The translations under genes and the position numbers were made by a program. DNA of 64,000 nucleotides from Escherichia coli (GTDB lineage Bacteria; Pseudomonadota; Gammaproteobacteria; Enterobacterales; Enterobacteriaceae). The stretch's first letter is position 1. Every line of letters begins with the position of its first letter. The stretch lies in the NCBI RefSeq assembly GCF_003018255.1, contig NZ_CP027440.1, one strand, 5' to 3'. Shown piece after piece: positions 1 through 60,605 of this stretch. The notes under the pieces are model-generated. The model was not told the origin of the DNA. It searched no databases and worked only from the letters and a program-made list of their open reading frames with translations.

Positions 1-225
1 GACAGTAATACTGCCTGGTTCAGCGTTGTCATCTCCAGTATCTAACCAACTCTGAACCAGCAATGGGTTATTGCCTTTATTTTCCAGACGCACATTGACG
101 CTTTTTTGTTCGCTTTTATAAACTACGCGTGTACCTGAAATTACGATGTCTGCAATAGCTGATGAGCTAAAAGCCATACAGCTCGCTAAGCACAATGCTG
201 CGGTATGTTTAGTATTAAAAAACAT
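1..225 (-). CDS. yadV: Fimbrial periplasmic chaperone (PapD-like), N-terminal 75 codons only; gene continues beyond the window start
   Basis: Hand translation of minus strand from ATG at 223-225: MFFNTKHTAALCLASCMAFSSSAIADIVISGTRVVYKSEQKSVNVRLENKGNNPLLVQSWLD...; signal peptide plus chaperone N-domain. Absent from ORF track because truncated by window edge. Confidence 0.8.
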   Translation of the reverse strand, partial: MFFNTKHTAALCLASCMAFSSSAIADIVISGTRVVYKSEQKSVNVRLENKGNNPLLVQSWLDTGDDNAEPGSITV

Positions 226-333
226 AAACCGTTCCTCACAGAGTTAATTAAAACAGGGAATAACGTTCAAAAATAAATATGTTTGATGTTATTCCCTATA
301 TATATTCACCCAATCAATTTAGGTGGCTGATAT

Positions 334-924
334 TTACTGGTAAGTAATGGTATATGCTGAGTTAGTTTTTACATAACCGGCAGTTGCTGCTTTGCTTGCA
401 TCAGCACGAACATAGGATGCTTTAAAATCGTAGGTTGCAGTTTTAGACGTTGCATCCAGAGTTTTGCTGTAAACATCACCCGGATTATTAACCTGAACCT
501 GCTTAATAGTGGAACCTTCAATATTATGCAGGGCAATATTCACACCATCAGATGGATTATTGATAGACATATCGTTATTCAGAGTACCTTTGCTATTGCT
601 AAAGAACACGGAACCGAAAGTCATTTTTGCAGTAGTACCCGGAGCCGGGTTAGCTTTGCTGCAGTCAATAGTAATGCTGAATGGCTTAGCTTTAGCACCT
701 ACGGTGGTATCCAGTACACCATCGGTGATTTCAGCAACAGTAGCGGTTTGCAGCAGGATCAAACCATCTTTGTTACCGCCATCAACACGAGCTTCACAGG
801 TGTTATCAACGACCAGGCCGCTAATATTTAACTGACCACCGTCCATATCGTTAGCAGCAAATGCAGTACCAGCAGCCATTGCCAACATAATACCAGACAG
901 CGCAAAACCTAATTTTTTAGACAT
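334..924 (-). CDS. yadN: Fimbrial major subunit-like protein (chaperone-usher pilin)
   Basis: ORF track 334..990 (-); start placed at internal ATG 922-924, giving signal peptide [23 protein letters not shown]; pilin-like C-terminus ...YTITYQ; first gene of the yad fimbrial operon. Confidence 0.85.
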
Positions 925-1099
925 AAAAATCCTTGAATAATATTCCATAGAGAGATAACCGCACCGCATGACGATAAGAGTCTGCTGCAATGCTGCGTAA
1001 CAAAATCGTTACTGTGTTAATGATGTTTGTCTGTTGTTTACCAACTATTACATTCATTCATCATCGGGATGGCTATTTTGCATAATGTGATAGCATATG

Positions 1100-1142
1100 C
1101 AATTTAATTTTACTAAAAATAAAAGTTAGTAAAATTAAATTT
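1100..1142. promoter_or_regulatory. Perfect 17-bp inverted repeat (caatttaattttactaa / ttagtaaaattaaattg, 9-nt spacer) in the AT-rich yadN upstream region; candidate regulator-binding site or hairpin
   Basis: Read directly from sequence; about 180 bp upstream of yadN start codon and about 145 bp downstream of folK stop. Confidence 0.35.
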
Positions 1143-1285
1143 GAAAGCTAAGAGGGATAGTGTATGGCGTGAGAATTACGGGAAGGTATATTATATTTTC
1201 TAAAATTTTATTTATCTTAATGATATTGTTTTGGCAATAACTTGAGGTTGTTTTCAGAATATATTTATATTCACACGAATAATAA

Positions 1286-1765
1286 TTACCACTTATCTAA
1301 TTCATTAAAGCCTTTTGCCTGTAGAGCTTCAACTAATGATAAGCCATCAGGAAATAGCAATTCCGGCGCAATTTCAAACAGTGGCCACAGCATAAAGCCG
1401 CGATTTTTCATATCGTAGTGCGGAACGGTCAGACGTTCGGTATTTATTACTTCATTACCAAACAGCATGATGTCGAGATCCAGCGTGCGCGGTCCCCAGC
1501 GTTCAGCTTTACGGACGCGACCTTGCTGCAATTCGATACGCTGTGTGTGATTGAGTAGCTCTTCAGGGGCAAGAGTGGTTTTCAGCGCGACGGCTGCATT
1601 TAAGTAATCGGGTTGATCTTGCGGCCCCAGCGGTGGGGTGCGGTAAAACGAAGAAACAGCAAGAATGCGGCTTTCTGGAATATCGCCTAATGCTTTCAGG
1701 GCAGCATTGACCTGCTCCAGCGGAGAGGCCAGATTGCTGCCGATGGCAATATACGCCACTGTCAT
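1286..1765 (-). CDS. folK: 2-amino-4-hydroxy-6-hydroxymethyldihydropteridine pyrophosphokinase (HPPK)
   Basis: ORF track 1286..1765 (-), 159 aa, [12 protein letters not shown]...; recognised HPPK sequence; start overlaps pcnB stop by 4 nt. Confidence 0.95.
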
Positions 1766-6137: not shown

Positions 6138-8567
6138 GTGTCGTCGTTGCCCGTTGCTGCCGTCTTACCTGAGTTACTTGCTGCTCTCGATTGTGCATCG
6201 CAGGTGTTATTAAGTGCGCCGACCGGGGCCGGGAAATCAACCTGGCTGCCGCTGCAACTGCTGGCGCATCCCGGCATTAACGGGAAAATTATCCTGCTGG
6301 AGCCGCGTCGTCTGGCGGCGCGTAACGTTGCGCAACGACTGGCGGAGCTGCTTAACGAAAAGCCAGGCGATACCGTTGGCTACCGGATGCGTGCGCAAAA
6401 CTGCGTCGGGCCGAATACCCGCCTGGAAGTGGTTACCGAAGGCGTGCTGACGCGGATGATCCAGCGTGACCCGGAACTGAGCGGTGTTGGATTGGTGATC
6501 CTTGATGAATTTCATGAGCGCAGCTTGCAGGCGGATTTGGCGTTGGCGCTGTTACTCGATGTGCAACAAGGTCTGCGTGATGACCTTAAACTGCTGATTA
6601 TGTCGGCTACGCTGGACAACGACCGCTTGCAGCAAATGCTGCCAGAAGCGCCCGTCGTCATCTCAGAAGGGCGCTCGTTTCCGGTTGAACGCCGTTATTT
6701 GCCGCTGCCCGCTCATCAGCGTTTTGACGAAGCCGTCGCGGTTGCCACCGCCGAAATGCTGCGTCAGGAAAGTGGATCATTACTGTTATTTTTACCTGGC
6801 GTCGGAGAAATTCAGCGTGTGCAGGAACAACTGGCTTCACGCATCGGCAGTGATGTGTTGCTCTGCCCGCTGTATGGCGCGTTGTCGCTGAACGATCAGC
6901 GAAAAGCGATCCTCCCGGCACCGCAAGGGATACGTAAAGTGGTGCTGGCGACCAATATTGCTGAAACCAGTTTAACCATCGAAGGTATTCGTCTGGTGGT
7001 GGATTGTGCCCAGGAGCGTGTGGCGCATTTTGATCCGCGTACAGGGCTTACGCGGCTGGTTACTCAACGCGTTAGTCAGGCGTCGATGACGCAACGTGCC
7101 GGGCGTGCCGGGCGTCTGGAGCCGGGTATCTGCCTGCATTTAATCGCCAAAGAACAAGCAGAACGCGCTGCCGCGCAAAGTGAACCGGAGATCTTACAAA
7201 GCGATCTTTCCGGTTTGCTGATGGAATTACTGCAATGGGGATGCAGCGATACGGCGCAGATGAGCTGGCTGGATCAACCGCCAACGGTGAATCTACAGGC
7301 CGCGAAACGGCTGTTACAAATGCTGGGGGCGCTGGAGGGTGAACGGCTTAGCGCACAAGGGCAAAAAATGGCAGTGCTGGGTAGCGATCCGCGTTTAGCG
7401 GCAATGCTGGTTAGCGCGAAGAACGACGACGAAGCTGCTACCGCGGCAAAAATTGCCGCCATTCTCGAAGAGCCGCCACGGATGGGCAATAGTGACCTGG
7501 GCGTGGCGTTTTCGCGCAATCAACCCGCCTGGCAGCAACGTAGTCAGCAACTGTTAAAACGCTTAAACGTACGCGGCGGTGAGGCAGACAGTTCGCTTAT
7601 CGCGCCGCTACTTGCCGGGGCGTATGCCGATCGCATTGCTTGTCGCCGTGGGCAAGATGGACGCTATCAACTGGCAAACGGCATGGGGGCGATGCTCGAT
7701 GCCGACGATGCGCTAAGCCGCTACGAATGGTTGATCGCACCGTTATTATTGCAGGGCAGCGCCTCGCCGGATGCGCGGATTTTACTGGCGCTACCGGTCG
7801 ATATCGATGAATTAGTACAACGCTGTCCGCAGCTGGTACAGCAGTCGGACACCGTGGAATGGGATGACGCGCAAGGCACGCTGAAAGCCTGGCGTCGGCT
7901 GCAAATCGGTCAGTTGACGGTGAAAGTGCAGCCACTGGCGAAACCCTCGGAAGACGAGTTGCATCAGGCGATGCTTAACGGCATCCGTGATAAAGGTTTA
8001 AGCGTGCTCAACTGGACGGCGGAAGCGGAACAGCTACGCTTGCGTTTGTTATTCGCCGCAAAGTGGTTGCCGGAATATGACTGGCCAGCGGTTGATGATG
8101 AGAGTTTGTTGGCGACGCTGGAAACGTGGCTACTGCCGCATATGAGCGGCGTGCATTCACTACGCGGCCTGAAATCACTCGACATTTATCAGGCGCTACG
8201 CGGATTACTTGATTGGGGAATGCAGCAACGTCTGGATAGTGAATTGCCTGCGCATTACACTGTGCCGACGGGAAGCCGGATCGCCATTCGTTATCATGAA
8301 GATAAACCGCCCGCGCTGGCGGTGAGAATGCAGGAGATGTTTGGTGAGGCCACCAATCCGACGATCGCCCAGGGGCGCGTGCCGCTGGTGCTGGAGTTGC
8401 TTTCCCCTGCCCAAAGGCCATTACAAATCACACGAGATTTGAGCGCCTTCTGGAAAGGAGCGTACCGTGAGGTGCAAAAAGAGATGAAAGGGCGTTATCC
8501 CAAACATGTCTGGCCGGACGACCCGGCAAATACTGCACCGACGCGACGGACGAAAAAGTATTCGTGA
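6138..8567 (+). CDS. hrpB: ATP-dependent RNA helicase HrpB (DEAH-box)
   Basis: ORF track 6093..8567 (+). Walker A APTGAGKST and DEFHER motif. Start placed at GTG 6138 (MSSLPVAAVLPELL..., 809 aa); the upstream ATG at 6093 is the alternative. Confidence 0.88.
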   Translation: MSSLPVAAVLPELLAALDCASQVLLSAPTGAGKSTWLPLQLLAHPGINGKIILLEPRRLAARNVAQRLAELLNEKPGDTVGYRMRAQNCVGPNTRLEVVTEGVLTRMIQRDPELSGVGLVILDEFHERSLQADLALALLLDVQQGLRDDLKLLIMSATLDNDRLQQMLPEAPVVISEGRSFPVERRYLPLPAHQRFDEAVAVATAEMLRQESGSLLLFLPGVGEIQRVQEQLASRIGSDVLLCPLYGALSLNDQRKAILPAPQGIRKVVLATNIAETSLTIEGIRLVVDCAQERVAHFDPRTGLTRLVTQRVSQASMTQRAGRAGRLEPGICLHLIAKEQAERAAAQSEPEILQSDLSGLLMELLQWGCSDTAQMSWLDQPPTVNLQAAKRLLQMLGALEGERLSAQGQKMAVLGSDPRLAAMLVSAKNDDEAATAAKIAAILEEPPRMGNSDLGVAFSRNQPAWQQRSQQLLKRLNVRGGEADSSLIAPLLAGAYADRIACRRGQDGRYQLANGMGAMLDADDALSRYEWLIAPLLLQGSASPDARILLALPVDIDELVQRCPQLVQQSDTVEWDDAQGTLKAWRRLQIGQLTVKVQPLAKPSEDELHQAMLNGIRDKGLSVLNWTAEAEQLRLRLLFAAKWLPEYDWPAVDDESLLATLETWLLPHMSGVHSLRGLKSLDIYQALRGLLDWGMQQRLDSELPAHYTVPTGSRIAIRYHEDKPPALAVRMQEMFGEATNPTIAQGRVPLVLELLSPAQRPLQITRDLSAFWKGAYREVQKEMKGRYPKHVWPDDPANTAPTRRTKKYS

Positions 8568-8660
8568 AGACCAAAGCAAATTTGAGAGATATCTTCTTCT
8601 GTCTTGCAACAGAAGAACAGAAAATCGGGCTTTTGCGCCTGAATATTGCGGAGAAAAAGC

Positions 8661-11192
8661 ATGGCCGGGAATGACCGCGAGCCAATTGGACGCAAAGGGA
8701 AACCGACGCGTCCGGTCAAACAAAAGGTAAGCCGTCGTCGTTACGAAGATGACGATTACGACGATTATGATGACTATGAGGATGAAGAACCGATGCCGCG
8801 CAAAGGTAAGGGCAAAGGCAAAGGGCGTAAGCCTCGTGGCAAACGCGGCTGGCTATGGCTGCTGCTAAAACTGGCTATCGTTTTTGCCGTGCTGATCGCC
8901 ATTTACGGCGTTTATCTCGATCAAAAAATTCGCAGCCGTATTGATGGCAAGGTCTGGCAATTGCCCGCGGCAGTTTATGGCCGAATGGTCAACCTTGAGC
9001 CAGACATGACCATCAGCAAGAACGAAATGGTGAAGCTGCTGGAGGCGACCCAGTATCGTCAGGTGTCGAAAATGACCCGTCCTGGCGAATTTACCGTGCA
9101 GGCCAACAGCATTGAGATGATCCGCCGTCCGTTTGATTTCCCGGACAGTAAAGAAGGGCAGGTGCGTGCGCGTCTGACCTTTGATGGCGATCATCTGGCG
9201 ACGATCGTCAATATGGAGAACAACCGTCAGTTTGGTTTCTTCCGTCTTGATCCGCGCCTGATCACCATGATCTCCTCGCCAAACGGTGAGCAGCGTTTGT
9301 TTGTGCCGCGCAGTGGTTTCCCGGATTTGCTGGTGGATACTTTGCTGGCGACAGAAGACCGCCATTTCTACGAGCATGATGGGATCAGTCTCTACTCCAT
9401 CGGACGTGCGGTGCTGGCAAACCTGACCGCCGGACGCACGGTGCAGGGTGCGAGTACGCTGACGCAACAGCTGGTGAAAAACCTGTTCCTCTCCAGCGAG
9501 CGCTCTTACTGGCGTAAAGCGAACGAAGCTTACATGGCGCTGATCATGGACGCGCGTTACAGCAAAGACCGTATTCTTGAGCTGTATATGAACGAGGTGT
9601 ATCTCGGTCAGAGCGGCGACAACGAAATCCGCGGCTTCCCGCTGGCGAGCTTGTATTACTTTGGTCGCCCAGTAGAAGAATTGAGCCTCGACCAGCAGGC
9701 GCTGTTGGTGGGTATGGTGAAAGGGGCGTCCATCTACAATCCGTGGCGTAACCCGAAACTGGCGTTGGAGCGACGTAATCTGGTACTGCGTCTGCTGCAA
9801 CAGCAACAGATTATTGATCAAGAACTCTATGACATGTTGAGTGCACGTCCGCTGGGGGTTCAGCCGCGCGGTGGGGTGATCTCTCCACAGCCAGCCTTTA
9901 TGCAACTGGTGCGTCAGGAGCTGCAGGCAAAACTGGGCGATAAGGTAAAAGATCTCTCCGGCGTGAAGATCTTCACTACCTTTGACTCGGTGGCCCAGGA
10001 CGCGGCAGAAAAAGCCGCCGTGGAAGGCATTCCGGCACTGAAGAAACAGCGTAAGTTGAGCGATCTTGAAACCGCGATTGTGGTCGTCGACCGCTTTAGT
10101 GGTGAAGTTCGTGCGATGGTTGGAGGTTCTGAGCCGCAGTTTGCGGGCTACAACCGTGCGATGCAGGCGCGTCGTTCGATTGGTTCCCTTGCAAAACCAG
10201 CGACTTATCTGACGGCCTTAAGCCAGCCGAAAATCTATCGCCTGAACACGTGGATTGCGGATGCGCCAATCGCGCTACGTCAGCCGAATGGCCAGGTCTG
10301 GTCACCGCAGAACGATGACCGTCGTTATAGCGAAAGCGGCAGAGTGATGCTGGTAGATGCGTTGACCCGTTCGATGAACGTGCCGACGGTGAATCTGGGC
10401 ATGGCGTTGGGGCTGCCTGCGGTTACGGAGACCTGGATTAAACTGGGTGTGCCGAAAGATCAACTGAATCCAGTTCCAGCAATGTTGTTGGGGGCGTTGA
10501 ACTTAACGCCAATCGAAGTGGCGCAGGCGTTCCAGACCATCGCCAGCGGTGGTAACCGTGCTCCGCTTTCTGCACTGCGTTCGGTAATCGCGGAAGATGG
10601 CAAGGTGCTGTATCAGAGCTTCCCGCAGGCGGAACGCGCTGTTCCGGCGCAGGCGGCGTATCTGACACTATGGACCATGCAGCAGGTGGTACAACGTGGT
10701 ACGGGGCGTCAGCTTGGGGCGAAATACCCGAACCTGCATCTGGCAGGGAAAACAGGGACTACCAACAATAACGTAGATACCTGGTTTGCGGGCATTGACG
10801 GCAGTACGGTGACCATCACCTGGGTAGGCCGTGATAACAACCAACCGACCAAATTGTATGGAGCCAGCGGGGCAATGTCGATTTATCAGCGTTATCTGGC
10901 TAACCAGACGCCAACACCGCTGAATCTTGTTCCGCCAGAAGATATTGCAGATATGGGCGTGGACTATGACGGCAACTTTGTTTGCAGCGGTGGCATGCGT
11001 GTCTTGCCGGTCTGGACCAGCGATCCGCAATCGCTGTGCCAGCAGAGTGAGATGCAGCAGCAGCCGTCAGGCAATCCGTTTGATCAGTCTTCTCAGCCGC
11101 AGCAACAGCCGCAACAGCAACCTGCTCAGCAAGAGCAGAAAGACAGCGACGGTGTAGCCGGTTGGATCAAGGATATGTTTGGTAGTAATTAA
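8661..11192 (+). CDS. mrcB: Penicillin-binding protein 1B (bifunctional glycosyltransferase/transpeptidase)
   Basis: ORF track 8646..11192 (+); start at [13 protein letters not shown]...; acidic [14 protein letters not shown] tract, TM helix [29 protein letters not shown] and SxxK motifs, Q/P-rich C-terminus. Confidence 0.93.
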
Positions 11193-11208
11193 CGTCTAAG
11201 CGTGACAT

Positions 11209-11233
11209 ACCGGATGGCGAGTAGCCATCCGGT
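11209..11233 (+). terminator. Perfect 10-bp stem hairpin (accggatggc-gagta-gccatccggt) just downstream of mrcB stop; no U-tract
   Basis: Read from sequence; followed by A-rich not T-rich sequence, so function as intrinsic terminator is uncertain. Confidence 0.3.
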
Positions 11234-11340
11234 AAAATAACATCCCACCCAAAGTATTAACCCTTTCTTTTCATCTGGTTGTTTATTAACCCTTCAGGAA
11301 CGCTCAGATTGCGTACCGCTTGCGAACCCGCCAGCGTTTC

Positions 11341-11390
11341 GAATATTATCTTATCTTTATAATAATCATTCTCGTTTACGTTATCATTCA
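11341..11390 (+). promoter_or_regulatory. Fur-box-like AT-rich repeats (gaatattatcttatc / tttataataatcattctcg / ttatcattc) in the fhuA promoter region
   Basis: About 14/19 match to the GATAATGATAATCATTATC consensus, 20-70 bp upstream of fhuA start; fhuA is a classical Fur-repressed gene. Confidence 0.5.
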
Positions 11391-11411
11391 CTTTATATCA
11401 GAGATATACCA

Positions 11412-13601
11412 ATGGCGCGTTCCAAAACTGCTCAGCCAAAACACTCACTGCGTAAAATCGCAGTTGTAGTAGCCACAGCGGTTAGCGGCATGTCTGTTTA
11501 TGCACAGGCAGCGGTTGAACCGAAAGAAGACACTATCACCGTTACCGCTGCACCTGCGCCGCAAGAAAGCGCATGGGGACCGGCTGCAACTATTGCGGCG
11601 AAGCACTCTGCTACTGCGACTAAAACGGATACACCAATTGAAAAAACGCCGCAGTCTATTTCGGTTGTGACAAATGAAGAGATGCAGATGCATCAATTTC
11701 AGTCTGTAAAAGAAGCATTAGGTTATACACCTGGCGTTACGGTTAGCAGTCGTGGTGCTTCTAATACATATGATTTTGTTATTATTCGTGGTTTCTCATC
11801 TGTTGGTCTGAATCAAAATAATTACCTTGATGGACTAAAACTTCAGGGCAACTTTTATAACGATGCTGTGATTGATCCTTACATGCTCGAGAGGGTTGAA
11901 CTGATGCGCGGGCCGACGTCTGTTCTCTATGGGAAAAGTAATCCTGGTGGGATTATTTCTATGGTGAGTAAGCGTCCGACAACTGAACCCCTGAAAGAAA
12001 TTCAGTTTAAAATGGGGACGGATAATCTGTTTCAGACCGGATTCGATTTCAGTGATGCGCTGGATGATAACGGTGAGTTCTCCTACCGTTTGACTGGCCT
12101 CGCACGCTCAACAAACGAACAGCAGAAAAACTCTGAATCTCAGCGTTATACCATTGCTCCATCATTCTCATGGCGTCCAGACGACAAAACCAATTTTACT
12201 TTCCTGTCCTATTTTCAGAACGAACCAGAAACGGGTTATTACGGTTGGTTGCCGAAAGAGGGGACCGTTGAGCCATTGCCTAATGGTAAGCGTCTACCGA
12301 CTGACTTCAATGAAGGTGCATCGAATAATACATACTCCCGTAACCAGAAAATGGTGGGATATAGTTTTGAACATGGTTTTAATGACACCTTCACCGTGCG
12401 TCAGAATCTGCGTTTCAGTGAAATGAAAACCTCACAGAAAAGTGTTTATGGCACAGGGATTGCCAGCGATGGTCATACCCTAAACCGCGGGACAGTGGTG
12501 GATAATGAGCGTCTGCAAAACTTTAGCGTTGATACCCAACTTGAAAGTAAATTTGCTACAGGTGAAGTCGAGCATACTTTGCTGACAGGGGTAGACTTCA
12601 TGCGTATGCGCAATGATATCAATGCCAGCTTTGGATCTGCACCATCCATCGATCTTTATAACAAATATCATCCTGAATACTTTGCATTTGGTAACGCAGA
12701 GCCATACCAAATGAATGAAAGCAAACAAACAGGTATTTATGTTCAGGATCAGGCGGAATGGAATAAATGGGTATTCACTCTGGGGGGACGCTACGATTGG
12801 TCTAAGCAAGCGACCACTGTTCGTGAAAACTCTTATACGCCGACTGAAGGTTATATTGAGCGTAATGATCATCAGTTCACCTGGCGCGGTGGTGTAAACT
12901 ACTTATTCGATAATGGTATTTCACCTTACTTTAGTTATAGCCAGTCCTTTGAACCGAGTGCTTTCGATCTGTGGAGCAACCCGCGCGTTTCCTATAAGCC
13001 ATCGAAAGGTGAACAGTATGAAGCTGGCGTAAAATATGTTCCGAATGATATGCCGGTCGTTGTTACGGGCGCAGTCTATCAATTGACGAAAACAAATAAC
13101 CTGACAGCAGACCCAACAAACCCGTTAGCGCAAGTCCCAGCAGGTGAGATTCGCGCTCGTGGTGTGGAACTTGAAGCAAAAGCGGCGTTAAATGCCAATA
13201 TTAACTTGACGGCTTCTTATACCTACACAGATGCGGAATACACCAAAGACACCAATCTCAAAGGTAAAACTCCAGAACAAGTACCGGAGCATATGGCATC
13301 TCTCTGGGGGGATTATACCTTCAATGAAGGGCCGCTTTCTGGTTTAACATTGGGAACAGGTGGTCGTTTTATTGGTTCCAGCTATGGTGATCCGGCGAAC
13401 ACTTTTAAAGTGGGTAGCGCAGCTGTAATGGATGCTGTTGTAAAATATGATCTGGCACGCTTTGGTATGGCGGGATCCAGCCTTGCTGTGAACGTCAACA
13501 ATTTGCTCGATCGTGAGTATGTTGCCAGTTGCTTCCAGACCTATGGCTGCTTCTGGGGCGCAGAACGTCAGGTCGTTGCAACCGCAACCTTCCGTTTCTA
13601 A
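11412..13601 (+). CDS. fhuA: Ferrichrome outer-membrane transporter / phage receptor FhuA (TonB-dependent), divergent allele
   Basis: ORF track 11412..13601 (+), 729 aa; signal peptide MARSKTAQPKHSLRKIAVVVATAVSGMSVYAQA, TonB box DTITVTA, C-terminal ...CFWGAERQVVATATFRF. Confidence 0.93.
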   Translation: MARSKTAQPKHSLRKIAVVVATAVSGMSVYAQAAVEPKEDTITVTAAPAPQESAWGPAATIAAKHSATATKTDTPIEKTPQSISVVTNEEMQMHQFQSVKEALGYTPGVTVSSRGASNTYDFVIIRGFSSVGLNQNNYLDGLKLQGNFYNDAVIDPYMLERVELMRGPTSVLYGKSNPGGIISMVSKRPTTEPLKEIQFKMGTDNLFQTGFDFSDALDDNGEFSYRLTGLARSTNEQQKNSESQRYTIAPSFSWRPDDKTNFTFLSYFQNEPETGYYGWLPKEGTVEPLPNGKRLPTDFNEGASNNTYSRNQKMVGYSFEHGFNDTFTVRQNLRFSEMKTSQKSVYGTGIASDGHTLNRGTVVDNERLQNFSVDTQLESKFATGEVEHTLLTGVDFMRMRNDINASFGSAPSIDLYNKYHPEYFAFGNAEPYQMNESKQTGIYVQDQAEWNKWVFTLGGRYDWSKQATTVRENSYTPTEGYIERNDHQFTWRGGVNYLFDNGISPYFSYSQSFEPSAFDLWSNPRVSYKPSKGEQYEAGVKYVPNDMPVVVTGAVYQLTKTNNLTADPTNPLAQVPAGEIRARGVELEAKAALNANINLTASYTYTDAEYTKDTNLKGKTPEQVPEHMASLWGDYTFNEGPLSGLTLGTGGRFIGSSYGDPANTFKVGSAAVMDAVVKYDLARFGMAGSSLAVNVNNLLDREYVASCFQTYGCFWGAERQVVATATFRF

Positions 13602-13651
13602 TTTTTTCTTTGGGGCACGGATTTCCGTGCCCGCTTCACAAGTTGGCTGTT

Positions 13652-14449
13652 ATGCAGGAATACACGAATCATTCCGATACCACTTTTGCACTGCGTAATA
13701 TCTCCTTTCGTGTGCCAGGGCGCACGCTTTTGCATCCGCTGTCGTTAACCTTTCCTGCCGGGAAAGTGACTGGTTTGATTGGTCACAACGGTTCTGGTAA
13801 ATCCACTCTGCTCAAAATGCTTGGCCGTCATCAGCCACCGTCGGAAGGCGAAATTCTTCTTGATGCCCAGCCGCTGGAAAGCTGGAGCAGCAAAGCGTTC
13901 GCCCGCAAAGTGGCTTATTTGCCGCAGCAGCTTCCTCCGGCAGAAGGGATGACCGTGCGTGAACTGGTGGCGATTGGTCGTTACCCGTGGCATGGCGCAC
14001 TGGGGCGCTTTGGTGCGGCAGATCGCGAAAAGGTCGAAGAGGCGATTTCGCTGGTTGGCTTAAAACCGCTGGCGCATCGGCTGGTCGATAGTCTCTCTGG
14101 CGGCGAACGTCAGCGGGCGTGGATCGCTATGCTGGTGGCGCAGGATAGCCGTTGTCTGTTGCTCGACGAACCGACCTCGGCGCTGGATATCGCCCACCAG
14201 GTTGATGTGCTGGCGCTGGTGCATCGTTTAAGTCAGGAACGTGGTCTGACGGTCATTGCCGTGCTGCACGATATTAATATGGCTGCGCGCTACTGTGATT
14301 ATCTGGTCGCCCTGCGCGGTGGTGAAATGATTGCTCAGGGAACGCCTGCGGAAATTATGCGCGGCGAAACCCTCGAAATGATTTATGGCATCCCGATGGG
14401 TATTCTGCCGCATCCGGCGGGTGCTGCACCTGTGAGTTTTGTTTATTGA
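13652..14449 (+). CDS. fhuC: Iron(III)-hydroxamate ABC transporter ATP-binding protein
   Basis: ORF track 13529..14449 (+); start at ATG 13652 (MQEYTNHSDTTFALRN..., 265 aa); Walker A GHNGSGKST, signature LSGGERQRA. Confidence 0.93.
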   Translation: MQEYTNHSDTTFALRNISFRVPGRTLLHPLSLTFPAGKVTGLIGHNGSGKSTLLKMLGRHQPPSEGEILLDAQPLESWSSKAFARKVAYLPQQLPPAEGMTVRELVAIGRYPWHGALGRFGAADREKVEEAISLVGLKPLAHRLVDSLSGGERQRAWIAMLVAQDSRCLLLDEPTSALDIAHQVDVLALVHRLSQERGLTVIAVLHDINMAARYCDYLVALRGGEMIAQGTPAEIMRGETLEMIYGIPMGILPHPAGAAPVSFVY

Positions 14450-15339
14450 TGAGCGGCTTACCTCTTATTTCGCGCCGCCGACTGTTAACGGCGATGGCGC
14501 TTTCTCCGTTGTTATGGCAGATGAATACCGCCCACGCGGCGATTATTGATCCCAATCGTATTGTGGCGCTGGAGTGGTTGCCGGTGGAATTACTGCTGGC
14601 GCTCGGCATCGTGCCTTACGGCGTGGCGGACACCATCAACTATCGCCTGTGGGTCAGCGAACCGCCATTGCCGGACTCAGTGATTGACGTTGGTTTGCGT
14701 ACAGAACCCAACCTTGAACTGCTGACCGAAATGAAACCGTCGTTTATGATCTGGTCGGCAGGATATGGCCCTTCACCAGAAATGCTGGCACGTATTGCGC
14801 CGGGGCGCGGATTTAACTTCAGCGACGGCAAACAGCCGCTGGCGATGGCGCGTAAATCACTGACGGAAATGGCAGATTTACTTAACCTGCAAAGCGCAGC
14901 AGAAACGCATTTAGCGCAATATGAAGACTTTATCCGCAGCATGAAACCCCGCTTTGTGAAGCGTGGTGCACGCCCGTTATTGCTGACGACGCTTATCGAT
15001 CCGCGCCATATGTTGGTCTTCGGTCCAAACAGCTTGTTCCAGGAAATTCTTGATGAGTACGGCATCCCAAATGCCTGGCAAGGGGAAACCAACTTCTGGG
15101 GCAGTACCGCCGTCAGTATCGATCGTCTGGCGGCGTATAAAGACGTTGATGTGCTCTGTTTTGATCACGACAACAGCAAAGACATGGATGCGCTAATGGC
15201 AACCCCGCTGTGGCAGGCCATGCCGTTTGTCCGTGCAGGACGTTTTCAGCGCGTTCCGGCGGTCTGGTTCTATGGCGCGACGCTTTCGGCAATGCACTTT
15301 GTGCGTATTCTGGATAACGCCATCGGAGGTAAAGCGTGA
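14449..15339 (+). CDS. fhuD: Iron(III)-hydroxamate periplasmic binding protein
   Basis: ORF track 14446..15339 (+); ATG 14449 overlaps fhuC stop by 1 nt; MSGLPLISRRRLLTAMALSPLLWQ (Tat-like signal). Confidence 0.92.
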   Translation: MSGLPLISRRRLLTAMALSPLLWQMNTAHAAIIDPNRIVALEWLPVELLLALGIVPYGVADTINYRLWVSEPPLPDSVIDVGLRTEPNLELLTEMKPSFMIWSAGYGPSPEMLARIAPGRGFNFSDGKQPLAMARKSLTEMADLLNLQSAAETHLAQYEDFIRSMKPRFVKRGARPLLLTTLIDPRHMLVFGPNSLFQEILDEYGIPNAWQGETNFWGSTAVSIDRLAAYKDVDVLCFDHDNSKDMDALMATPLWQAMPFVRAGRFQRVPAVWFYGATLSAMHFVRILDNAIGGKA

Positions 15340-17318
15340 GTAAACGAATTGCGCTTTTTCCGGCGTTATTGCTGGCGCTGCTGGTGATTGTCGCTACGGC
15401 GCTCACCTGGATGAACTTCTCGCAGGCGTTGCCGCGCAGCCAGTGGGCGCAGGCCGCCTGGTCGCCGGATATTGACGTCATCGAGCAGATGATTTTTCAC
15501 TACAGCTTGTTGCCGCGTCTGGCGATTTCGCTGCTGGTGGGCGCGGGCCTGGGGCTGGTGGGCGTGCTGTTTCAGCAAGTGCTGCGTAACCCGCTGGCGG
15601 AACCGACGACGTTGGGCGTTGCAACAGGCGCGCAACTGGGGATTACCGTCACTACGCTCTGGGCGATCCCAGGTGCTATGGCGAGCCAGTTTGCTGCGCT
15701 GGCAGGGGCTTGCGTTGTTGGCTTAATTGTCTTTGGCGTCGCGTGGGGGAAACGGCTGTCGCCGGTAACGCTGATCCTCGCGGGGCTGGTAGTGAGCCTT
15801 TATTGTGGGGCAATCAATCAGTTACTGGTTATCTTCCATCACGACCAGCTACAAAGCATGTTCCTGTGGAGCACCGGAACGCTGACGCAAACCGACTGGG
15901 GCGGCGTTGAGCGTTTATGGCCGCAGCTGCTGGGCGGCGTGATGCTGACGTTATTGCTACTTCGCCCGTTAACCCTGATGGGGCTTGATGATGGCGTGGC
16001 GCGCAATCTCGGTCTGGCCTTGTCGCTGGCGCGTCTGGCGGCGCTGTCGCTGGCGATAGTCATCAGTGCGCTGCTGGTGAATGCAGTGGGGATTATCGGC
16101 TTTATCGGGTTGTTCGCGCCGCTGCTGGCAAAAATGCTGGGGGCGCGGCGTCTGCTGCCACGGTTAATGCTGGCGTCGCTGATTGGTGCGTTAATTCTGT
16201 GGCTTTCTGATCAAATCATCCTCTGGCTGACTCGCGTGTGGATGGAAGTTTCCACCGGTTCGGTCACTGCGTTGATCGGTGCGCCGCTGCTACTGTGGCT
16301 GCTGCCGCGTTTACGCAGCATTAGCGCGCCGGATATGAAGGTCAACGATCGTGTCGCGGCTGAACGCCAACATGTGCTGGCGTTTGCCCTCGCGGGCGGC
16401 GTGCTGCTGTTGATGGCTGTGGTAGTGGCGCTGTCGTTTGGTCGTGATGCGCACGGCTGGACGTGGGCGAGCGGGGCGTTGCTCGAGGATTTAATGCCCT
16501 GGCGCTGGCCGCGAATTATGGCGGCGCTGTTTGCGGGCGTCATGCTGGCGGTGGCGGGCTGTATTATTCAGCGGCTGACCGGAAACCCGATGGCAAGCCC
16601 GGAAGTGCTGGGGATTAGCTCCGGCGCGGCGTTTGGCGTGGTGTTGATGCTGTTTCTGGTGCCGGGTAATGCCTTTGGCTGGCTGTTACCTGCAGGCAGT
16701 CTCGGCGCGGCGGTGACGCTGTTGATCATTATGATCGCCGCCGGACGCGGTGGATTTTCCCCACACCGCATGTTACTGGCGGGGATGGCGTTAAGTACCG
16801 CGTTCACCATGCTTTTGATGATGTTGCAGGCAAGTGGTGACCCGCGAATGGCGCAAGTGCTGACCTGGATCTCCGGTTCGACCTACAACGCGACCGATGC
16901 GCAGGTCTGGCGCACGGGAATTGTGATGGTAATTTTGCTGGCGATTAACCCGCTGTGCCGCCGCTGGCTGACCATTTTACCGCTGGGCGGTGATACCGCA
17001 CGAGCCGTAGGAATGGCGCTGACGCCGACGCGAATTGCGCTGCTGCTATTAGCGGCTTGCCTGACGGCGACCGCGACGATGACTATTGGACCGTTGAGTT
17101 TTGTTGGTTTAATGGCACCGCATATTGCGCGGATGATGGGTTTTCGACGGACGATGCCACACATCGTAATTTCGGCGCTGGTGGGTGGTTTACTGCTGGT
17201 GTTCGCTGACTGGTGTGGGCGGATGGTATTGTTTCCATTCCAGATCCCGGCGGGGCTGCTGTCAACCTTTATCGGCGCGCCATATTTTATCTATTTGTTG
17301 AGAAAGCAGAGCCGTTAA
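15336..17318 (+). CDS. fhuB: Iron(III)-hydroxamate ABC transporter permease (fused duplicated domains)
   Basis: ORF track 15336..17318 (+), 660 aa; GTG start overlapping fhuD stop by 4 nt; two homologous halves, highly hydrophobic. Confidence 0.93.
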   Translation: MSKRIALFPALLLALLVIVATALTWMNFSQALPRSQWAQAAWSPDIDVIEQMIFHYSLLPRLAISLLVGAGLGLVGVLFQQVLRNPLAEPTTLGVATGAQLGITVTTLWAIPGAMASQFAALAGACVVGLIVFGVAWGKRLSPVTLILAGLVVSLYCGAINQLLVIFHHDQLQSMFLWSTGTLTQTDWGGVERLWPQLLGGVMLTLLLLRPLTLMGLDDGVARNLGLALSLARLAALSLAIVISALLVNAVGIIGFIGLFAPLLAKMLGARRLLPRLMLASLIGALILWLSDQIILWLTRVWMEVSTGSVTALIGAPLLLWLLPRLRSISAPDMKVNDRVAAERQHVLAFALAGGVLLLMAVVVALSFGRDAHGWTWASGALLEDLMPWRWPRIMAALFAGVMLAVAGCIIQRLTGNPMASPEVLGISSGAAFGVVLMLFLVPGNAFGWLLPAGSLGAAVTLLIIMIAAGRGGFSPHRMLLAGMALSTAFTMLLMMLQASGDPRMAQVLTWISGSTYNATDAQVWRTGIVMVILLAINPLCRRWLTILPLGGDTARAVGMALTPTRIALLLLAACLTATATMTIGPLSFVGLMAPHIARMMGFRRTMPHIVISALVGGLLLVFADWCGRMVLFPFQIPAGLLSTFIGAPYFIYLLRKQSR

Positions 17319-17324
17319 TAGAAT

Positions 17325-17345
17325 GCCTCGCCCGGTGGGCGAGGC
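17325..17345. terminator. Hairpin gcctcgcc-cggtg-ggcgaggc between convergent fhuB and hemL (candidate bidirectional terminator)
   Basis: Read from sequence; occupies most of the 34-nt fhuB-hemL spacer. Confidence 0.4.
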
Positions 17346-17352
17346 AAAATCA

Positions 17353-18633
17353 TCACAACTTCGCAAACACCCGACGTGCAGCATCGATGGTGTTATTGAT
17401 ATCTTCCATGCTGTGCGCCACGGACATAAAGCCCGCTTCAAACGCTGACGGTGCCAGATAAACACCTTCGTCCAGCATCATATGGAAGAAACGCTTAAAG
17501 CGTTCCACGTCACAGGCCATCACATCCTGATAGCACGTCACGGACTCGGCGTCGGTAAAGAAAATACCGAACATGCCGCCAACGTGGTTTACCACCAGCG
17601 GAATTCCGGCTTCTTCTGCCGCTTCCAGCAGACCTTCTGCCAGACGTGTTGTCAGCTCATCCAGCGTCTCGTGAACGCCCGGCTGTGCGACTTCATTCAG
17701 ACAGGCGAAACCAGCTGCCATCGCAATCGGGTTACCGGAAAGCGTACCCGCCTGATAGACCGGACCAGTCGGGGCCAGCGCATCCATTACATCACGACGA
17801 CCACCGAATGCGCCTACCGGCATTCCACCGCCGATGATTTTGCCGAGGCAGGTTAAATCTGGCACTACGCCGTAATAATCCTGTGCGCCAGCTAGCGCTA
17901 CGCGGAAACCGGTCATCACTTCATCGATGATCAGCAACGCGCCAAATTCGTCACACAGCGCACGCAGACCTGGCAGGAACTCTGGCAGCGGTGGAACGCA
18001 GTTCATATTGCCTGCCACCGGCTCGACGATAATACAGGCAATCTCATGCGGGTACTGTTCGAACGCGGCGCGTACAGAGGCCAGATCGTTATAAGTACAG
18101 GTTAAGGTATGTTTGGCGAAATCTGCCGGAACACCCGGCGAGTTTGGCTGGCCTAACGTGAGTGCGCCAGAACCGGCTTTCACCAGCAGGCAGTCAGCGT
18201 GACCGTGGTAACAACCTTCAAATTTAATGATTTTGTCGCGACCGGTAAAACCACGGGCCAGGCGGATTGCGCTCATGGTCGCTTCAGTGCCGGAGTTCAC
18301 CATGCGCACCATATCCATGGTCGGGACCAGTTCGGTCACCAGTTGCGCCATTTTCACTTCCATTTCGGTCGGTGCACCAAAGCTTAAACCACGCTCGGCG
18401 GCTTCAATCACGGCATTGCGGATCGCCGGATGGTTATGGCCCAGCACCATCGGCCCCCAGGAACCGACATAATCGATATAGGCTTTGCCATCAACATCGT
18501 ACAGATAAGCGCCGTCCGCTTTTTCGATAAACAGTGGAGTGCCGCCCACGCCAGTAAAGGCGCGAACAGGGGAGTTCACACCGCCAGGGATCAGCTCGCG
18601 CGCTGCGCTGTAAAGATTTTCAGACTTACTCAT
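17353..18633 (-). CDS. hemL: Glutamate-1-semialdehyde 2,1-aminomutase
   Basis: ORF track 17353..18633 (-), 426 aa, [26 protein letters not shown]...; class III aminotransferase. Confidence 0.96.
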
Positions 18634-59040: not shown

Positions 59041-59751
59041 ATGGTGAAAAAAGCGATAGTGACAGCGATGGCTGTAATCAGCCTCTTTACTCTGATGGGT
59101 TGTAATAATCGGGCCGAAGTCGATACGCTTTCTCCGGCGCAGGCTGCCGAACTGAAACCGATGCCGCAAAGTTGGCGCGGCGTGCTGCCGTGTGCTGATT
59201 GCGAAGGAATCGAAACCTCTCTGTTCCTCGAAAAAGACGGAACATGGGTGATGAATGAGCGTTATCTCGGTGCTCGTGAAGAACCTTCCTCCTTCGCTTC
59301 CTACGGTACATGGGCGCGAACCGCTGACAAGCTAGTATTAACCGACAGCAAAGGTGAAAAGTCATATTATCGGGCGAAAGGCGATGCGCTGGAGATGCTC
59401 GATCGTGAAGGCAATCCGATTGAATCGCAGTTCAACTATACGCTAGAACCGGCACAATCCAGTTTACCTATGACGCCGATGACCCTGCGGGGCATGTATT
59501 TTTATATGGCTGATGCGGCGACCTTCACTGATTGCGCGACCGGAAAACGTTTCATGGTAGCGAATAACGCAGAGCTGGAGCGTAGCTACCTGGCTGCGCG
59601 CGGTCACAGTGAAAAACCGGTGTTATTGTCAGTAGAAGGTCACTTTACGCTTGAGGGTAATCCGGATACCGGTGCGCCGACTAAAGTATTGGCACCCGAT
59701 ACGGCGGGTAAATTTTATCCGAACCAGGATTGCAGTAGTTTGGGGCAGTAA
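59041..59751 (+). CDS. nlpE: Outer-membrane lipoprotein NlpE (Cpx-pathway sensor)
   Basis: ORF track 59041..59751 (+), 236 aa; lipobox LMGC, CxxC motif PCADCEG. Confidence 0.93.
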   Translation: MVKKAIVTAMAVISLFTLMGCNNRAEVDTLSPAQAAELKPMPQSWRGVLPCADCEGIETSLFLEKDGTWVMNERYLGAREEPSSFASYGTWARTADKLVLTDSKGEKSYYRAKGDALEMLDREGNPIESQFNYTLEPAQSSLPMTPMTLRGMYFYMADAATFTDCATGKRFMVANNAELERSYLAARGHSEKPVLLSVEGHFTLEGNPDTGAPTKVLAPDTAGKFYPNQDCSSLGQ

Positions 59752-59754
59752 TTG

Positions 59755-59778
59755 AAAGCCGGAGCATTCTCCGGCTTT
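59755..59778. terminator. Bidirectional terminator hairpin (aaagccgga-gcattc-tccggcttt) between convergent nlpE and yaeF
   Basis: Read from sequence; A-tract before and T-tract after the stem. Confidence 0.55.
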
Positions 59779-59780
59779 TA

Positions 59781-60605
59781 TCACTGAGTCAGCCCAACAA
59801 AGCGACCCGCCTTGATATAAATCCCTGGCTTCAGGTGCCCAACATACTGTAACTGCGTTTCTGGCTTAAACGCAGAGACATCACCAATACGCATATGCAT
59901 CAGATCGGCAGGGCTAATCCAGCCCGATTGCGCCAGTGTAAGCGGATGCCCGGCTTTGGCAAATGCATCAGTGACAAATTCCGAACAAAACCACGACTTT
60001 TTGTCTCCTTCGCCCACACTGCTTAACTGCGCTTTCGCCAGGCCGCTGACGCACTGTTGACGAAAATCCTCGGAGAACGGATTCAGTGAGCACACCTGGC
60101 GAGTCACCATAAAGGGAATAAATTCGACAATGCCGCGATAGTTATAACCGCTATCTTTGATTTTATTAGCAAACGCGGTGATATCTGTGGCTTGTTGCGG
60201 GGTAAGATCCGGGACTCGTAAGACGAAAAGCTTATCACTGTGCTTCATCGCTTTTTTAAGGGAAACGATCTGGACGCCAGCGCCTGTCGCTTCTGCAACG
60301 TTATTATCACCCAGAAAGATTGCAACGTGACTCACAGAGGAAGTGCTGAAGACGCGGATTCCAAATGAGGTTACCCCAAGGCTTGAGGAGAACAGCAAAT
60401 CGCCGGGTTTGAGATCAGGTGCCGTTATTTCTTTTATTGATTGTTCGGTGAAAGAGCTTTGATGCTGGAATTTGACTACCCATGTTTTTGCCTCGACATC
60501 TACCGCTGTGGCAGAGGAGTCTGGCTGGCTGATATCAACGGTACAGGCCGAAAGTAAAAGAAAGCAGGGGAGAAGCAGGCGGTAGTACGCCTTTGGTTTA
60601 TCCAT
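59781..60605 (-). CDS. yaeF: Predicted lipoprotein, permuted papain-fold (NlpC/P60-like) peptidase family
   Basis: ORF track 59781..60614 (-); start at ATG 60603-60605 (MDKPKAYYRLLLPCFLLLSAC lipobox, 274 aa). Confidence 0.85.
   Translation of the reverse strand: MDKPKAYYRLLLPCFLLLSACTVDISQPDSSATAVDVEAKTWVVKFQHQSSFTEQSIKEITAPDLKPGDLLFSSSLGVTSFGIRVFSTSSVSHVAIFLGDNNVAEATGAGVQIVSLKKAMKHSDKLFVLRVPDLTPQQATDITAFANKIKDSGYNYRGIVEFIPFMVTRQVCSLNPFSEDFRQQCVSGLAKAQLSSVGEGDKKSWFCSEFVTDAFAKAGHPLTLAQSGWISPADLMHMRIGDVSAFKPETQLQYVGHLKPGIYIKAGRFVGLTQ

Follow-up and report, generated by a model that had tools for sequence, protein, structure and literature searches.

An Escherichia coli fhuA mosaic with ordinary ends around a divergent, AT-rich core

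FhuA of Escherichia coli K-12 is the docking site for phages T1, T5 and phi80, many newly isolated coliphages, colicin M, microcin J25, albomycin and the rifamycin CGP 4832. K-12-type FhuA (class E1) has been solved alone (1BY3, 2FCP, 1QFF) and in complexes with T5 pb5 or Llp (8A60, 8A8C/8B14), and none of the solved structures is of the type described here. In the T5 complex, 23 of the 27 hydrogen bonds between pb5 and FhuA are made via EL4, EL5 and EL8, with EL8 being important for pb5 (PMC9586334), and T1 has been reported to depend on L4 while T5 and phi80 depend on L8 (PMC10373560). According to papers citing Endriss and Braun (2004), T5 tolerates the deletion of most single FhuA loops, with the exception of L8.

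Natural variation in fhuA has been described as mosaic and recombining, with variability at the loop tips (Wang, Chen, Hu, Zhu, White and Koster 2018, Infect Immun 86:e00573-18; preprint 10.1101/320069). In that work, the E. coli cluster E3 is sister to the Salmonella cluster S2, lacks the inserts in L4 (Indel 3) and L5 (Indel 4) that are both present in E1, S1 and E2, and carries insertions in L6 (Indel 5) and L7 (Indel 6), and the authors favour an exchange of types after speciation. Similar observations exist for E. coli ompC, ompF, ompA, lamB and other outer-membrane protein genes, which occur as a few discrete loop types shuffled by local recombination, with variability located at the extracellular loop tips bound by phages (Chen et al. 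2022 AEM; PMC12175518, 2025). Allele classes and loop-tip variation have thus been known since 2018 and were extended in 2022 and 2025, and the gene described below adds nothing conceptually new in that respect.

We analysed a window of 64,000 nucleotides from E. coli contig NZ_CP027440.1 (assembly GCF_003018255.1), in which fhuA, with a probability that we put at roughly 0.85, encodes an intact, Fur-regulated TonB-dependent ferrichrome transporter of the published E3 class and is a mosaic with an ancient core of a different type (Table 1). The reading frame comprises 729 codons plus a stop, and the product starts with MARSKTAQPKHSLRK and ends in ATFRF. A preliminary description of this DNA had given its length as 729 amino acids against 747 in K-12, in agreement with the K-12-type reference used here (FhuA of strain CY598, WP_000124438.1). 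An identical gene is present in the complete genome NZ_AP025214.2, where the product is labelled 'ferrichrome porin FhuA' (WP_001561436.1), and 652 recorded contigs encode exactly this protein. Residues 34-729 matched residues 1-714 of solved E. coli FhuA (1BY3, 8A8C and others) in phmmer with E = 0, and the representative sequence of its protein cluster at 90% has PF07715 (Plug) and PF00593 (barrel) as recorded Pfam domains. An AlphaFold2 model, used solely to separate strands from loops, showed the successive barrel strands at moderate confidence (mean pLDDT 64, approximately 70-85 in the barrel, with the plug poorly modelled).

The window gene shares with K-12 its locus, promoter, signal peptide, TonB box and the fold of a plug in a 22-strand barrel. 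It is the first gene of the fhuACDB operon and is flanked, in the same order as in K-12, by mrcB and hemL, and the nucleotide identity of fhuC, fhuD and fhuB to K-12 is 95-99%, with a synonymous divergence (pS) of 0.11-0.12. Only a few bases of the upstream region (11193-11411) deviate from K-12. A strict search for a Fur box with at most 3 mismatches gave no match, and the site listed in Table 1 came from a subsequent, looser scan; its bases are the same in K-12. Because the promoter and the Fur-box-like site are K-12-like, we infer that iron regulation of the gene is unchanged relative to K-12. An Rfam scan of positions 10500-14500 gave no match. An antisense open reading frame within fhuA (12480-12872, 130 aa) was without support and was taken as a by-product of the AT-rich sequence.

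Table 1 Features of the fhuA locus, with positions in the window.
Feature	Position	Strand	Basis and remarks
Fur-box-like site, fhuA promoter region	11355..11373	+	CTTTATAATAATCATTCTC; Fur consensus match 14/19
fhuA CDS	11412..13601	+	Open reading frame; phmmer match to solved FhuA; annotation in identical genome
E. coli-specific 5' segment (signal peptide, TonB box, plug start; codons 1-63)	11412..11600	+	Nucleotide and protein identity
Type-specific core of putative class E3 (rest of plug, whole 22-strand barrel, all surface loops)	11601..13540	+	Identity, informative sites, GC
L4 (residues 351-355, ASDGH), tight turn	12462..12476	+	17 residues shorter than in K-12, both Cys lost; alignment, AlphaFold2
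L5 (residues 415-430)	12654..12701	+	7 to 8 residues shorter than in K-12, 5/16 identical; alignment, AlphaFold2 map
L6 (residues 471-479)	12822..12848	+	5-residue insertion relative to K-12; alignment, AlphaFold2 map
L7 (residues 515-530)	12954..13001	+	2 residues longer than in K-12, 3/16 identical; alignment, AlphaFold2 map
L8 tip (residues 567-573)	13110..13130	+	DPTNPLA vs DPEGSFF in K-12, 2/7 identical; alignment, AlphaFold2 map
Conserved fhuA 3' end (last beta-strand), E. coli-like onward	13541..13601	+	Nucleotide comparison
fhuC, fhuD, fhuB (remaining operon)	13652..17318	+	Intact open reading frames, ordinary E. coli alleles

Pairwise alignment of the window FhuA with K-12-type FhuA, a check that the preliminary description had proposed, gave 559 identical residues in 754 aligned columns (74%) and 32 gap columns, with the loops both substituted and gapped. 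DNA identity to K-12 along the gene was 95-100% up to position ~11580, 45-85% at 11600-13540 and 95-99% from ~13550 onward. Over the 1.94-kb core as a whole it was 70.3%, and the flanks of the core were 97-100% identical to K-12, in line with the recombined segment in a conserved neighbourhood that had been suggested earlier. Informative sites placed the junctions at 11583-11600 and 13541-13604, and the outermost informative core sites, at 11601 and 13538, were common to six other E3 alleles compared; identity of the core to other E3 alleles was 98.1-99.3%. The 5' segment was 98.9-100% identical to K-12 and other E. coli at the nucleotide level and ~82-90% identical to Salmonella. At the protein level, the earlier impression of a K-12-like N-terminus and extreme C-terminus held, since residues 1-63, which include the signal peptide and the TonB box (...EDTITVTA...), and residues 711-729 are identical to K-12. 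The divergent block had been placed at roughly 11.65-13.45 kb and is real, but it extends slightly wider (11601-13540), and the divergence that had been located in the barrel and loops does replace the loops but also takes in almost all of the plug, where identity to K-12 is 78% and divergence starts at codon 64. The boundaries of the core lie at most a few tens of bases from those that separate the two Salmonella types, and the ends of the gene are not type-specific, consistent with the mosaic reading. These results show that the window gene is a mosaic, with ordinary E. coli ends around a divergent core.

The window allele lacks the inserts of Indel 3 and Indel 4 (17 residues in L4, 7+1 in L5) and has those of Indel 5 and Indel 6 (L6 +5, L7 +2), as Wang et al. 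define E3, and the protein groups with Salmonella S2 apart from E1/S1/E2 and from E4, with the S. arizonae FhuA (747 aa) grouping with K-12. Based on their description of the indels and on the relation to S2, the allele appears to belong to class E3. Nothing essential differs between the published E3/S2 pair and the window allele, which share the shortened L4 and L5, the lengthened L6 and L7, a sister relation to the type that contains Typhimurium, and the conservation of cork, strands and fhuCDB neighbourhood. The preprint text gives no DNA junctions, synonymous divergence or base composition, and what is added here beyond it are the junctions at 11601/13540, the saturation of pS in the E3-S2 comparison, and the shift of the E3 core towards AT. 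Compared with the ompC, ompF, ompA and lamB mosaics, the window fhuA likewise represents one of a few loop types with variation at phage-bound tips, but it differs in one contiguous 1.94-kb block that includes plug and strands, whereas the omp mosaics consist of short variable regions shuffled independently.

We found the E3 loop region in 562 of 5,426 complete E. coli genomes, always chromosomal, in single copy and at 97.4-100% identity, and alleles at least 95% identical to the window fhuA were likewise present in 562 complete genomes. The allele is therefore not specific to one strain: it is carried by ~10% of complete E. coli genomes, many of them poultry and urinary isolates, and has already been published. 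The loop-region search matched solely these 562 genomes, giving no further E. coli class with E3-type loops. A band of 81 genomes at 80-90% identity, considered as a third E. coli class with such loops, did not have them.

Loops and strands were assigned from the K-12 alignment and the AlphaFold2 strand and loop map. Identity to K-12 was 61% in predicted extracellular loops, 77% in strands and 78% in periplasmic turns. L3 and L10 are almost as in K-12 (30/31 and 14/15 identical), while L5-L8 are replaced and the Cys318-Cys329 disulfide is absent. L4 lacks PANAYSKQCAALAPADK, which spans mature residues 321-337 in K-12, and has Ala in place of Cys318, so that both disulfide cysteines are gone, and the region reads ...YGTGIASDGHTLNRG..., much as the preliminary description had it when noting that the K-12 Cys-Cys loop is replaced by a shorter, cysteine-free segment. 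The residues missing from L5 correspond to mature 411-417 and 425, the L6 insertion follows mature residue 469, and the L6 and L7 insertions both fall in predicted extracellular loops. In L8, K-12 residue F557 is Ala. Matches to Salmonella S2 in L5, L6, L7 and L8 were 14/16, 7/9, 15/16 and 7/7, respectively, compared to 5/16, 1/9, 3/16 and 2/7 for K-12.

The similarity to Salmonella extends over the whole protein. A 729-aa S. enterica FhuA of type S2 aligned without gaps at 689 identical positions of 729 (95%), the Typhimurium and Infantis proteins share the 90% cluster of the window FhuA, and the representative of that cluster is a Salmonella sequence. Equal length and gapless 95% identity would fit a fhuA gene that this E. 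coli lineage had lately acquired horizontally from Salmonella enterica, but the core DNA is 79.7% identical to S2, which is no higher than for mrcB or fhuCDB, and GC3 differs by 15 points (41% in E3, 56% in the Salmonella counterpart). Synonymous divergence between E3 and S2 (pS 0.741, pN 0.040) was at saturation, with 0.54-0.68 in the flanking genes, which excludes a recent import from Salmonella; we consider such a transfer refuted and give it next to no probability. A scan covering representatives of 100,044 species, from which 80 loci were kept, gave no donor among these loci: the highest value for core DNA outside E. coli was 80.5% identity, in Citrobacter sp. Res13. Two proteins 91% identical to the window FhuA were rejected as donors, as they derive from an enterobacterial MAG with 57.7% GC and a core DNA identity of ~74-83%. 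Neither Salmonella nor any of the species representatives sampled is therefore a recent source of the core.

We also considered whether a K-12-type gene had diverged in place by point mutation under diversifying selection, or whether the allele is an artefact of assembly or contamination. Synonymous divergence between E3 and E1 was 0.64 in plug, strands and loops alike, compared with 0.10-0.12 in the flanks of the same genomes, and the core resembles the FhuA sequences of other genera more than that of K-12, both of which contradict mutation in place, while an artefact is contradicted by the recurrence of the allele in 562 complete genomes. Both explanations are refuted by these values and can be regarded as exceedingly improbable. 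The window FhuA is 82-87% identical to FhuA of several other genera, among them Scandinavium, Kluyvera, Klebsiella aerogenes and Cronobacter, compared to 74% for K-12, so that across the Enterobacteriaceae the window type is the more typical one; its earlier characterization as a divergent allele is correct relative to K-12 but does not extend to the family.

Comparison of the two core types within each genus bears on the age of the mosaic. One possible reading, which we hold with reservation, is that the two types, E1/S1 and E3/S2, already coexisted before Escherichia and Salmonella split, as an ancient polymorphism maintained in both lineages by balancing, frequency-dependent selection through phages and colicins, with recombination within species keeping the ends species-specific. 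Divergence is at species level in both pairs (pS 0.74 for E3-S2 and 0.59 for E1-S1, against the values above for the flanks), little protein change has accumulated within a type (pN 0.04-0.06), the core boundaries match between E. coli and Salmonella, and the 5' end is species-specific in both genera. A neighbour-joining tree of 81 FhuA proteins is also consistent with this reading, with E3 and Salmonella S2 as sisters and Citrobacter branching next in the type-B clade. Saturation, however, blurs the distinction between types as old as the split and older types that were later exchanged, the presence of several types in each of many other genera fits lateral exchange equally well, and Wang et al. 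favour exchange after speciation.

Base composition argues in a different direction. GC content was 44.6% and GC3 40.6% in the core, compared to 50.8% and 54.6% in the homologous K-12 core and 55.0% and 61.7% in mrcB, confirming the AT-rich centre with atypical codons relative to flanking genes noted in the preliminary description, and none of the 86 enterobacterial fhuA genes in the comparison had a lower GC3 than the E3 core. On the E3 branch, synonymous changes were biased from GC to AT (82 vs 32 in the opposite direction), with 35 vs 67 on the Salmonella branch. The E3 lineage has therefore undergone a derived AT shift at synonymous sites. Long residence in E. coli does not explain the low GC3 of the core, and under an ancient polymorphism neither this GC3 nor the derived excess would be expected after ~100 million years in a genome with 51% GC.

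Both would be easier to accommodate if an ancestral E. coli had acquired the core in a single event, by crossovers in the conserved ends of fhuA, from a relative of the Salmonella/Citrobacter group that is lower in GC and unsampled, and homologous recombination had later spread it between E. coli lineages. The junctions are sharp and identical across all seven E3 alleles compared, and core diversity within E3 (0.7-2.8%) is comparable to, and among the same strains lower than, that of the flanks. Conversely, divergence of up to 2.8% within E3 means that any import must be old, the best match outside E. coli among the loci kept is as low as given above, the close protein relatives all come from genera with at least 50% GC, and the same junctions separate the two Salmonella types, such that they may mark the end of conservation rather than one crossover. 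We regard this single import as conceivable and no better than tentative. A more speculative proposal, which we consider rather doubtful, is that the core types are a balanced polymorphism older than the Escherichia-Salmonella split, kept in both genera by pressure from phages and colicins, in which the minority E3 type drifted towards AT because its divergence blocked recombination with the majority allele. Under such recombination isolation, less recombination would lead to less GC-biased gene conversion or to weaker selection on codon usage.

Regarding function, the window protein retains R81, G99, Y116, Y244, W246, Y313, F391 and F693 among the positions that we take to contact ferrichrome in K-12 FhuA (these and Q100 and Y315, a list said to go back to the K-12 structures that Ferguson and Locher described in 1998), and it carries the changes Q100L and Y315T, both of which are also present in Salmonella S2 FhuA. 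The Salmonella FhuA that is nearly identical to the window protein is functional. Given the conserved fold, TonB box and operon, most of these contact residues and a functional Salmonella relative, the window FhuA probably still transports ferrichrome, although kinetics could differ from K-12 owing to Q100L and Y315T.

FhuA of S. Typhimurium serves phage ES18 and is not known to serve T1, T5 or colicin M. At the level of sequence, K-12-like surfaces for phage and colicin binding on L4, L5 and L8 are absent from the window FhuA, which strongly suggests a changed susceptibility to T1, T5, phi80 and colicin M. With L4 lost, T1 would be expected to have no site, and T5 pb5 would be expected to bind poorly or not at all given the altered L4, L5 and L8; since T5 tolerates most deletions of single loops, loss of its binding is likely, with some uncertainty. 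A natural precedent is FhuA of E. coli Nissle 1917, which was compared as a T1 and T5 receptor with the DH10B protein, to which it is 89% identical: the phages infect DH10B and not Nissle, and expression of DH10B FhuA renders strains susceptible (PMC13226779, 2026). Like the window allele, the Nissle protein is a natural E. coli variant, but it belongs to another class (~753 aligned residues, 89% identity to K-12), and the window allele, at 74%, is far more divergent. On the phenotype of Salmonella-type receptors, the literature gave confounded results for whole Salmonella and Shigella strains, in the T5 structure preprint, and nothing decisive in the Innolysin paper.

A receptor surface remodelled across L4-L9 would alter the set of phages and colicins able to dock, and it is probably frequency-dependent selection, exerted by phages and colicins, that maintains the allele classes, with homologous recombination through the conserved ends expected to carry cores between genetic backgrounds. 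E3 E. coli could in principle be recognised by phages using the Salmonella S2 receptor, whose surface is similar, and phages of Salmonella-type receptors could pass from one genus to the other as far as adsorption is concerned. Roughly a tenth of sequenced E. coli genomes encode a receptor surface far nearer to FhuA of Salmonella Typhimurium than to that of K-12, such that predictions of phage host range need the fhuA allele class, and phage cocktails, as well as pb5-based and siderophore-conjugate antibacterials calibrated on K-12, may miss E3 strains. The junctions, the old synonymous separation of E3 and S2 and the AT shift bear on whether such diversity reflects long-lived balanced polymorphism or serial imports. 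If the polymorphism did predate the split, it would contradict the published exchange of types after speciation, and if E3 is isolated from recombination, fhuA would provide a natural test case for the role of recombination in maintaining bacterial GC content.

We compared the window FhuA with the 747-aa K-12-type protein (strain CY598, WP_000124438.1) by pairwise alignment and found 74% identity with 32 gap columns and indels in loops L4-L7, while residues 1-63, which include the signal peptide and TonB box, and residues 711-729 were identical to K-12. At the DNA level, flanks were 95-100% identical to K-12, compared to 70% in the core of the gene. These results bear out the preliminary description, which had proposed a divergent, mosaic allele with a K-12-like N terminus and extreme C terminus, embedded as a recombined segment in a conserved neighborhood; informative sites located both junctions of that segment (see table). 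In L4, the K-12 segment PANAYSKQCAALAPADK is absent and Cys318 is replaced by Ala, such that the L4 disulfide is lost, in agreement with the earlier claim that a shorter cysteine-free segment replaces the K-12 Cys-Cys loop. Relative to K-12, L5 is 7-8 residues shorter, L6 is 5 longer and L7 is 2 longer.

Coordinates of fhuA and other stretches of the window that differ from K-12
Feature	Position	Strand	Description
fhuA	11412-13601	+	729-codon ORF; 'ferrichrome porin FhuA' WP_001561436.1 in a genome with an identical gene
fhuA type-specific core	11601-13540		
5' junction of core	11583-11600		
3' junction of core	13541-13604		
yadN-like fimbrial major-subunit gene and upstream	1-1489		56-83% identity to K-12; AT-rich (38% GC); 'fimbrial protein' WP_001317621.1 in the genome with the identical fhuA
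cdaR 3' end, yaeH, yaeI	27300-28900		78-93% identity to K-12, ~98% around; 46.7% GC
hrpB-mrcB intergenic	8390-8687		Indel
fhuB-hemL intergenic	17200-17476		Indel
nlpE-yaeF intergenic	59568-59897		Indel

Gene order in the window (yadV/yadN-folK-pcnB-dksA-hrpB-mrcB-fhuACDB-hemL-...-metQ) was colinear with K-12, and the Fur-box-like site in the fhuA promoter was the same as in the K-12 promoter. The complete genome NZ_AP025214.2 carries an identical fhuA, and the exact protein is recorded as E. coli FhuA on 652 contigs. No RNA families were matched across 10.5-14.5 kb, and no support was found for an antisense ORF at 12480-12872 within fhuA. The 90%-identity protein cluster holding window FhuA (the cluster of P0001, represented by a Salmonella sequence) also has 265-aa FhuC proteins among its members, which presumably is an artefact of how the collection was clustered and may stem from fused or read-through gene calls. 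Elsewhere in the window, the yadN-like stretch is a further variable surface-protein locus amid conserved neighbors, and the cdaR-yaeI stretch may be a second recombined block. The three intergenic stretches had 17-63% identity to K-12 in 200-bp windows, differences taken to be presence or absence of repeat elements.

The window fhuA is a real feature that is already in the literature. The text of Wang et al. 2018 (10.1101/320069; Infect Immun 86:e00573-18) describes four E. coli clusters, E1 (K-12) through E4, and two in Salmonella, S1 and S2, of which S2 groups with E3; it presents fhuA as a mosaic gene whose tree conflicts with those of fhuCDB and of housekeeping genes, and proposes selection by phages. 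Assigned from that text description, the window allele shows all of the E3 features defined there. Later papers extended 'mosaic evolution' to ompA, ompC, ompF, lamB and 21 outer-membrane protein families (Chen et al. 2022 AEM; PMC12175518). GC content, synonymous divergence and breakpoints are not mentioned in the searched text of the 2018 preprint, and our additions to the E3 description concern age, junctions, diversity and composition.

Among complete E. coli genomes, 5,424 of 5,426 had fhuA, and the window type (≥95% identity over the gene, with the loop region 12400-12900 at 97.4-100%) occurred in 562 (10.4%) of these, always chromosomal and in single copy; the remaining genomes, K-12-like and other classes, matched window fhuA at ~76%. 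Hosts of carriers included many poultry/APEC, human urinary and fecal, dog, horse and wild-bird isolates. Divergence of E3 cores was 0.7-1.9% across five E. coli strains and rose to 2.3-2.8% against a GTDB representative labelled E. coli, a diversity similar to or under that of the flanks, which indicates that E3 has long been resident in the species. One species-representative genome (SCPM-O-B-8794; core 97.7%) had no alignment to mrcB upstream of its E3 fhuA and fhuCD only ~94-95% identical to other E. coli, which could reflect a divergent lineage or a rearrangement. E3-type fhuA was annotated as a frameshifted pseudogene in O1:H42 CLSC36 and in Br_112_kylling, the latter also with an internal deletion, showing that FhuA loss occurs on the E3 background too.

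The nearest protein cluster was a 729-aa Salmonella enterica FhuA, including those of Typhimurium and Infantis, with 689/729 residues identical and no gaps. FhuA of Scandinavium, Kluyvera, Klebsiella aerogenes, Cronobacter and others (82-87%) were also nearer than K-12. A neighbor-joining tree built from the FhuA of species-representative genomes (81 proteins) contained several deep types, and many genera (Citrobacter, Kosakonia, Buttiauxella, Trabulsiella, Kluyvera, Lelliottia, Salmonella and Escherichia) fell into more than one of them; S. enterica FhuA was sister to the window allele, and K-12 FhuA grouped with E. whittamii, near S. arizonae. Nei-Gojobori estimates for the window allele against Salmonella S2 were pS 0.741 and pN 0.040, compared to 0.54-0.68 and 0.06-0.12 in flanking hrpB, fhuC, fhuD and fhuB, such that the likeness reflects protein conservation on an old split. 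Recent import from Salmonella is ruled out by this pS and by core DNA identity of at most 80.5% to any non-E. coli species representative among the matches listed (80 loci). K-12 and S. arizonae fhuA (E1 vs. S1) had pS 0.593 and pN 0.056. Divergence in place by point mutation is refuted by E3-E1 pS of 0.641 (pN 0.140) against ~0.11 in the flanks, and by the presence of the type in 562 genomes.

The switch from K-12-like to E3-like sequence fell at the same informative sites in six other E3-bearing genomes. The identity profile of Salmonella S2 vs. S1 fell and recovered at ~11570-11600 and ~13500-13560, nearly the E. coli positions. A S2-type S. enterica and a S1-type S. arizonae locus were mosaic as in E. 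coli over the equivalent of ~11570-13560, with ends 95-100% identical, a core at ~70% and nearly the same boundaries. The 5' end is specific to the species, and the core to the type, in Escherichia and Salmonella alike. These common junctions lean towards an ancient polymorphism maintained in both genera, with ends homogenized within each species, a history we regard as possible and put forward tentatively.

The core is also AT-richer than its neighbors, as previously noted, with 44.6% GC and 40.6% GC3 compared to 50.8% and 54.6% in the K-12 core and 55% and 62% in mrcB; its GC3 (41%) was the lowest among 86 enterobacterial fhuA genes. Parsimony polarization assigned 82 GC-to-AT and 32 AT-to-GC synonymous changes to the E3 branch, a derived excess, vs. 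35 and 67 on the Salmonella branch. This AT shift leans towards an equally tentative account, in which the core came from an unsampled relative of lower GC in a single old import and then spread through E. coli. pS does not separate this import from ancient polymorphism because synonymous sites are saturated. In E3-type relatives from Lelliottia, Kluyvera and a metagenome-assembled genome, fhuA was 7-9 GC points under its own flanks.

Window FhuA matched solved structures of K-12 FhuA from end to end (E = 0). An AlphaFold2 model with a mean pLDDT of 64 (70-85 in the barrel, poor in the plug) served solely to tell strands from loops. On this map, identity to K-12 was lowest in the predicted extracellular loops (61%), compared to 77% in strands and 78% in both periplasmic turns and the plug part of the core. 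Predicted L3 and L10 were almost the same as in K-12, while residues shared with K-12 vs. Salmonella S2 numbered 5 vs. 14 of 16 in L5, 1 vs. 7 of 9 in L6, 3 vs. 15 of 16 in L7 and 2 vs. 7 of 7 in L8. The majority of the residues that we take to contact ferrichrome are kept; two presumed contact positions are changed (Q100L and Y315T), both also in Salmonella.

Of the 27 hydrogen bonds in the structure of T5 pb5 bound to FhuA, 23 involve EL4, EL5 and EL8, and EL7/EL8 movement blocks pb5 binding (PMC9586334); L4 is needed by T1, and L8 by T5 and phi80 (PMC10373560). T1 and T5 infect DH10B and not Nissle, which has a milder natural variant (89% to DH10B), and DH10B FhuA confers susceptibility (PMC13226779). 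Together with the fold match, loop differences and kept contact residues, this suggests, at the level of sequence, that window FhuA would retain ferrichrome and albomycin uptake, with a phage and colicin spectrum shifted in the direction of Salmonella S2 FhuA. The practical interest of E3 fhuA lies in phage host range.
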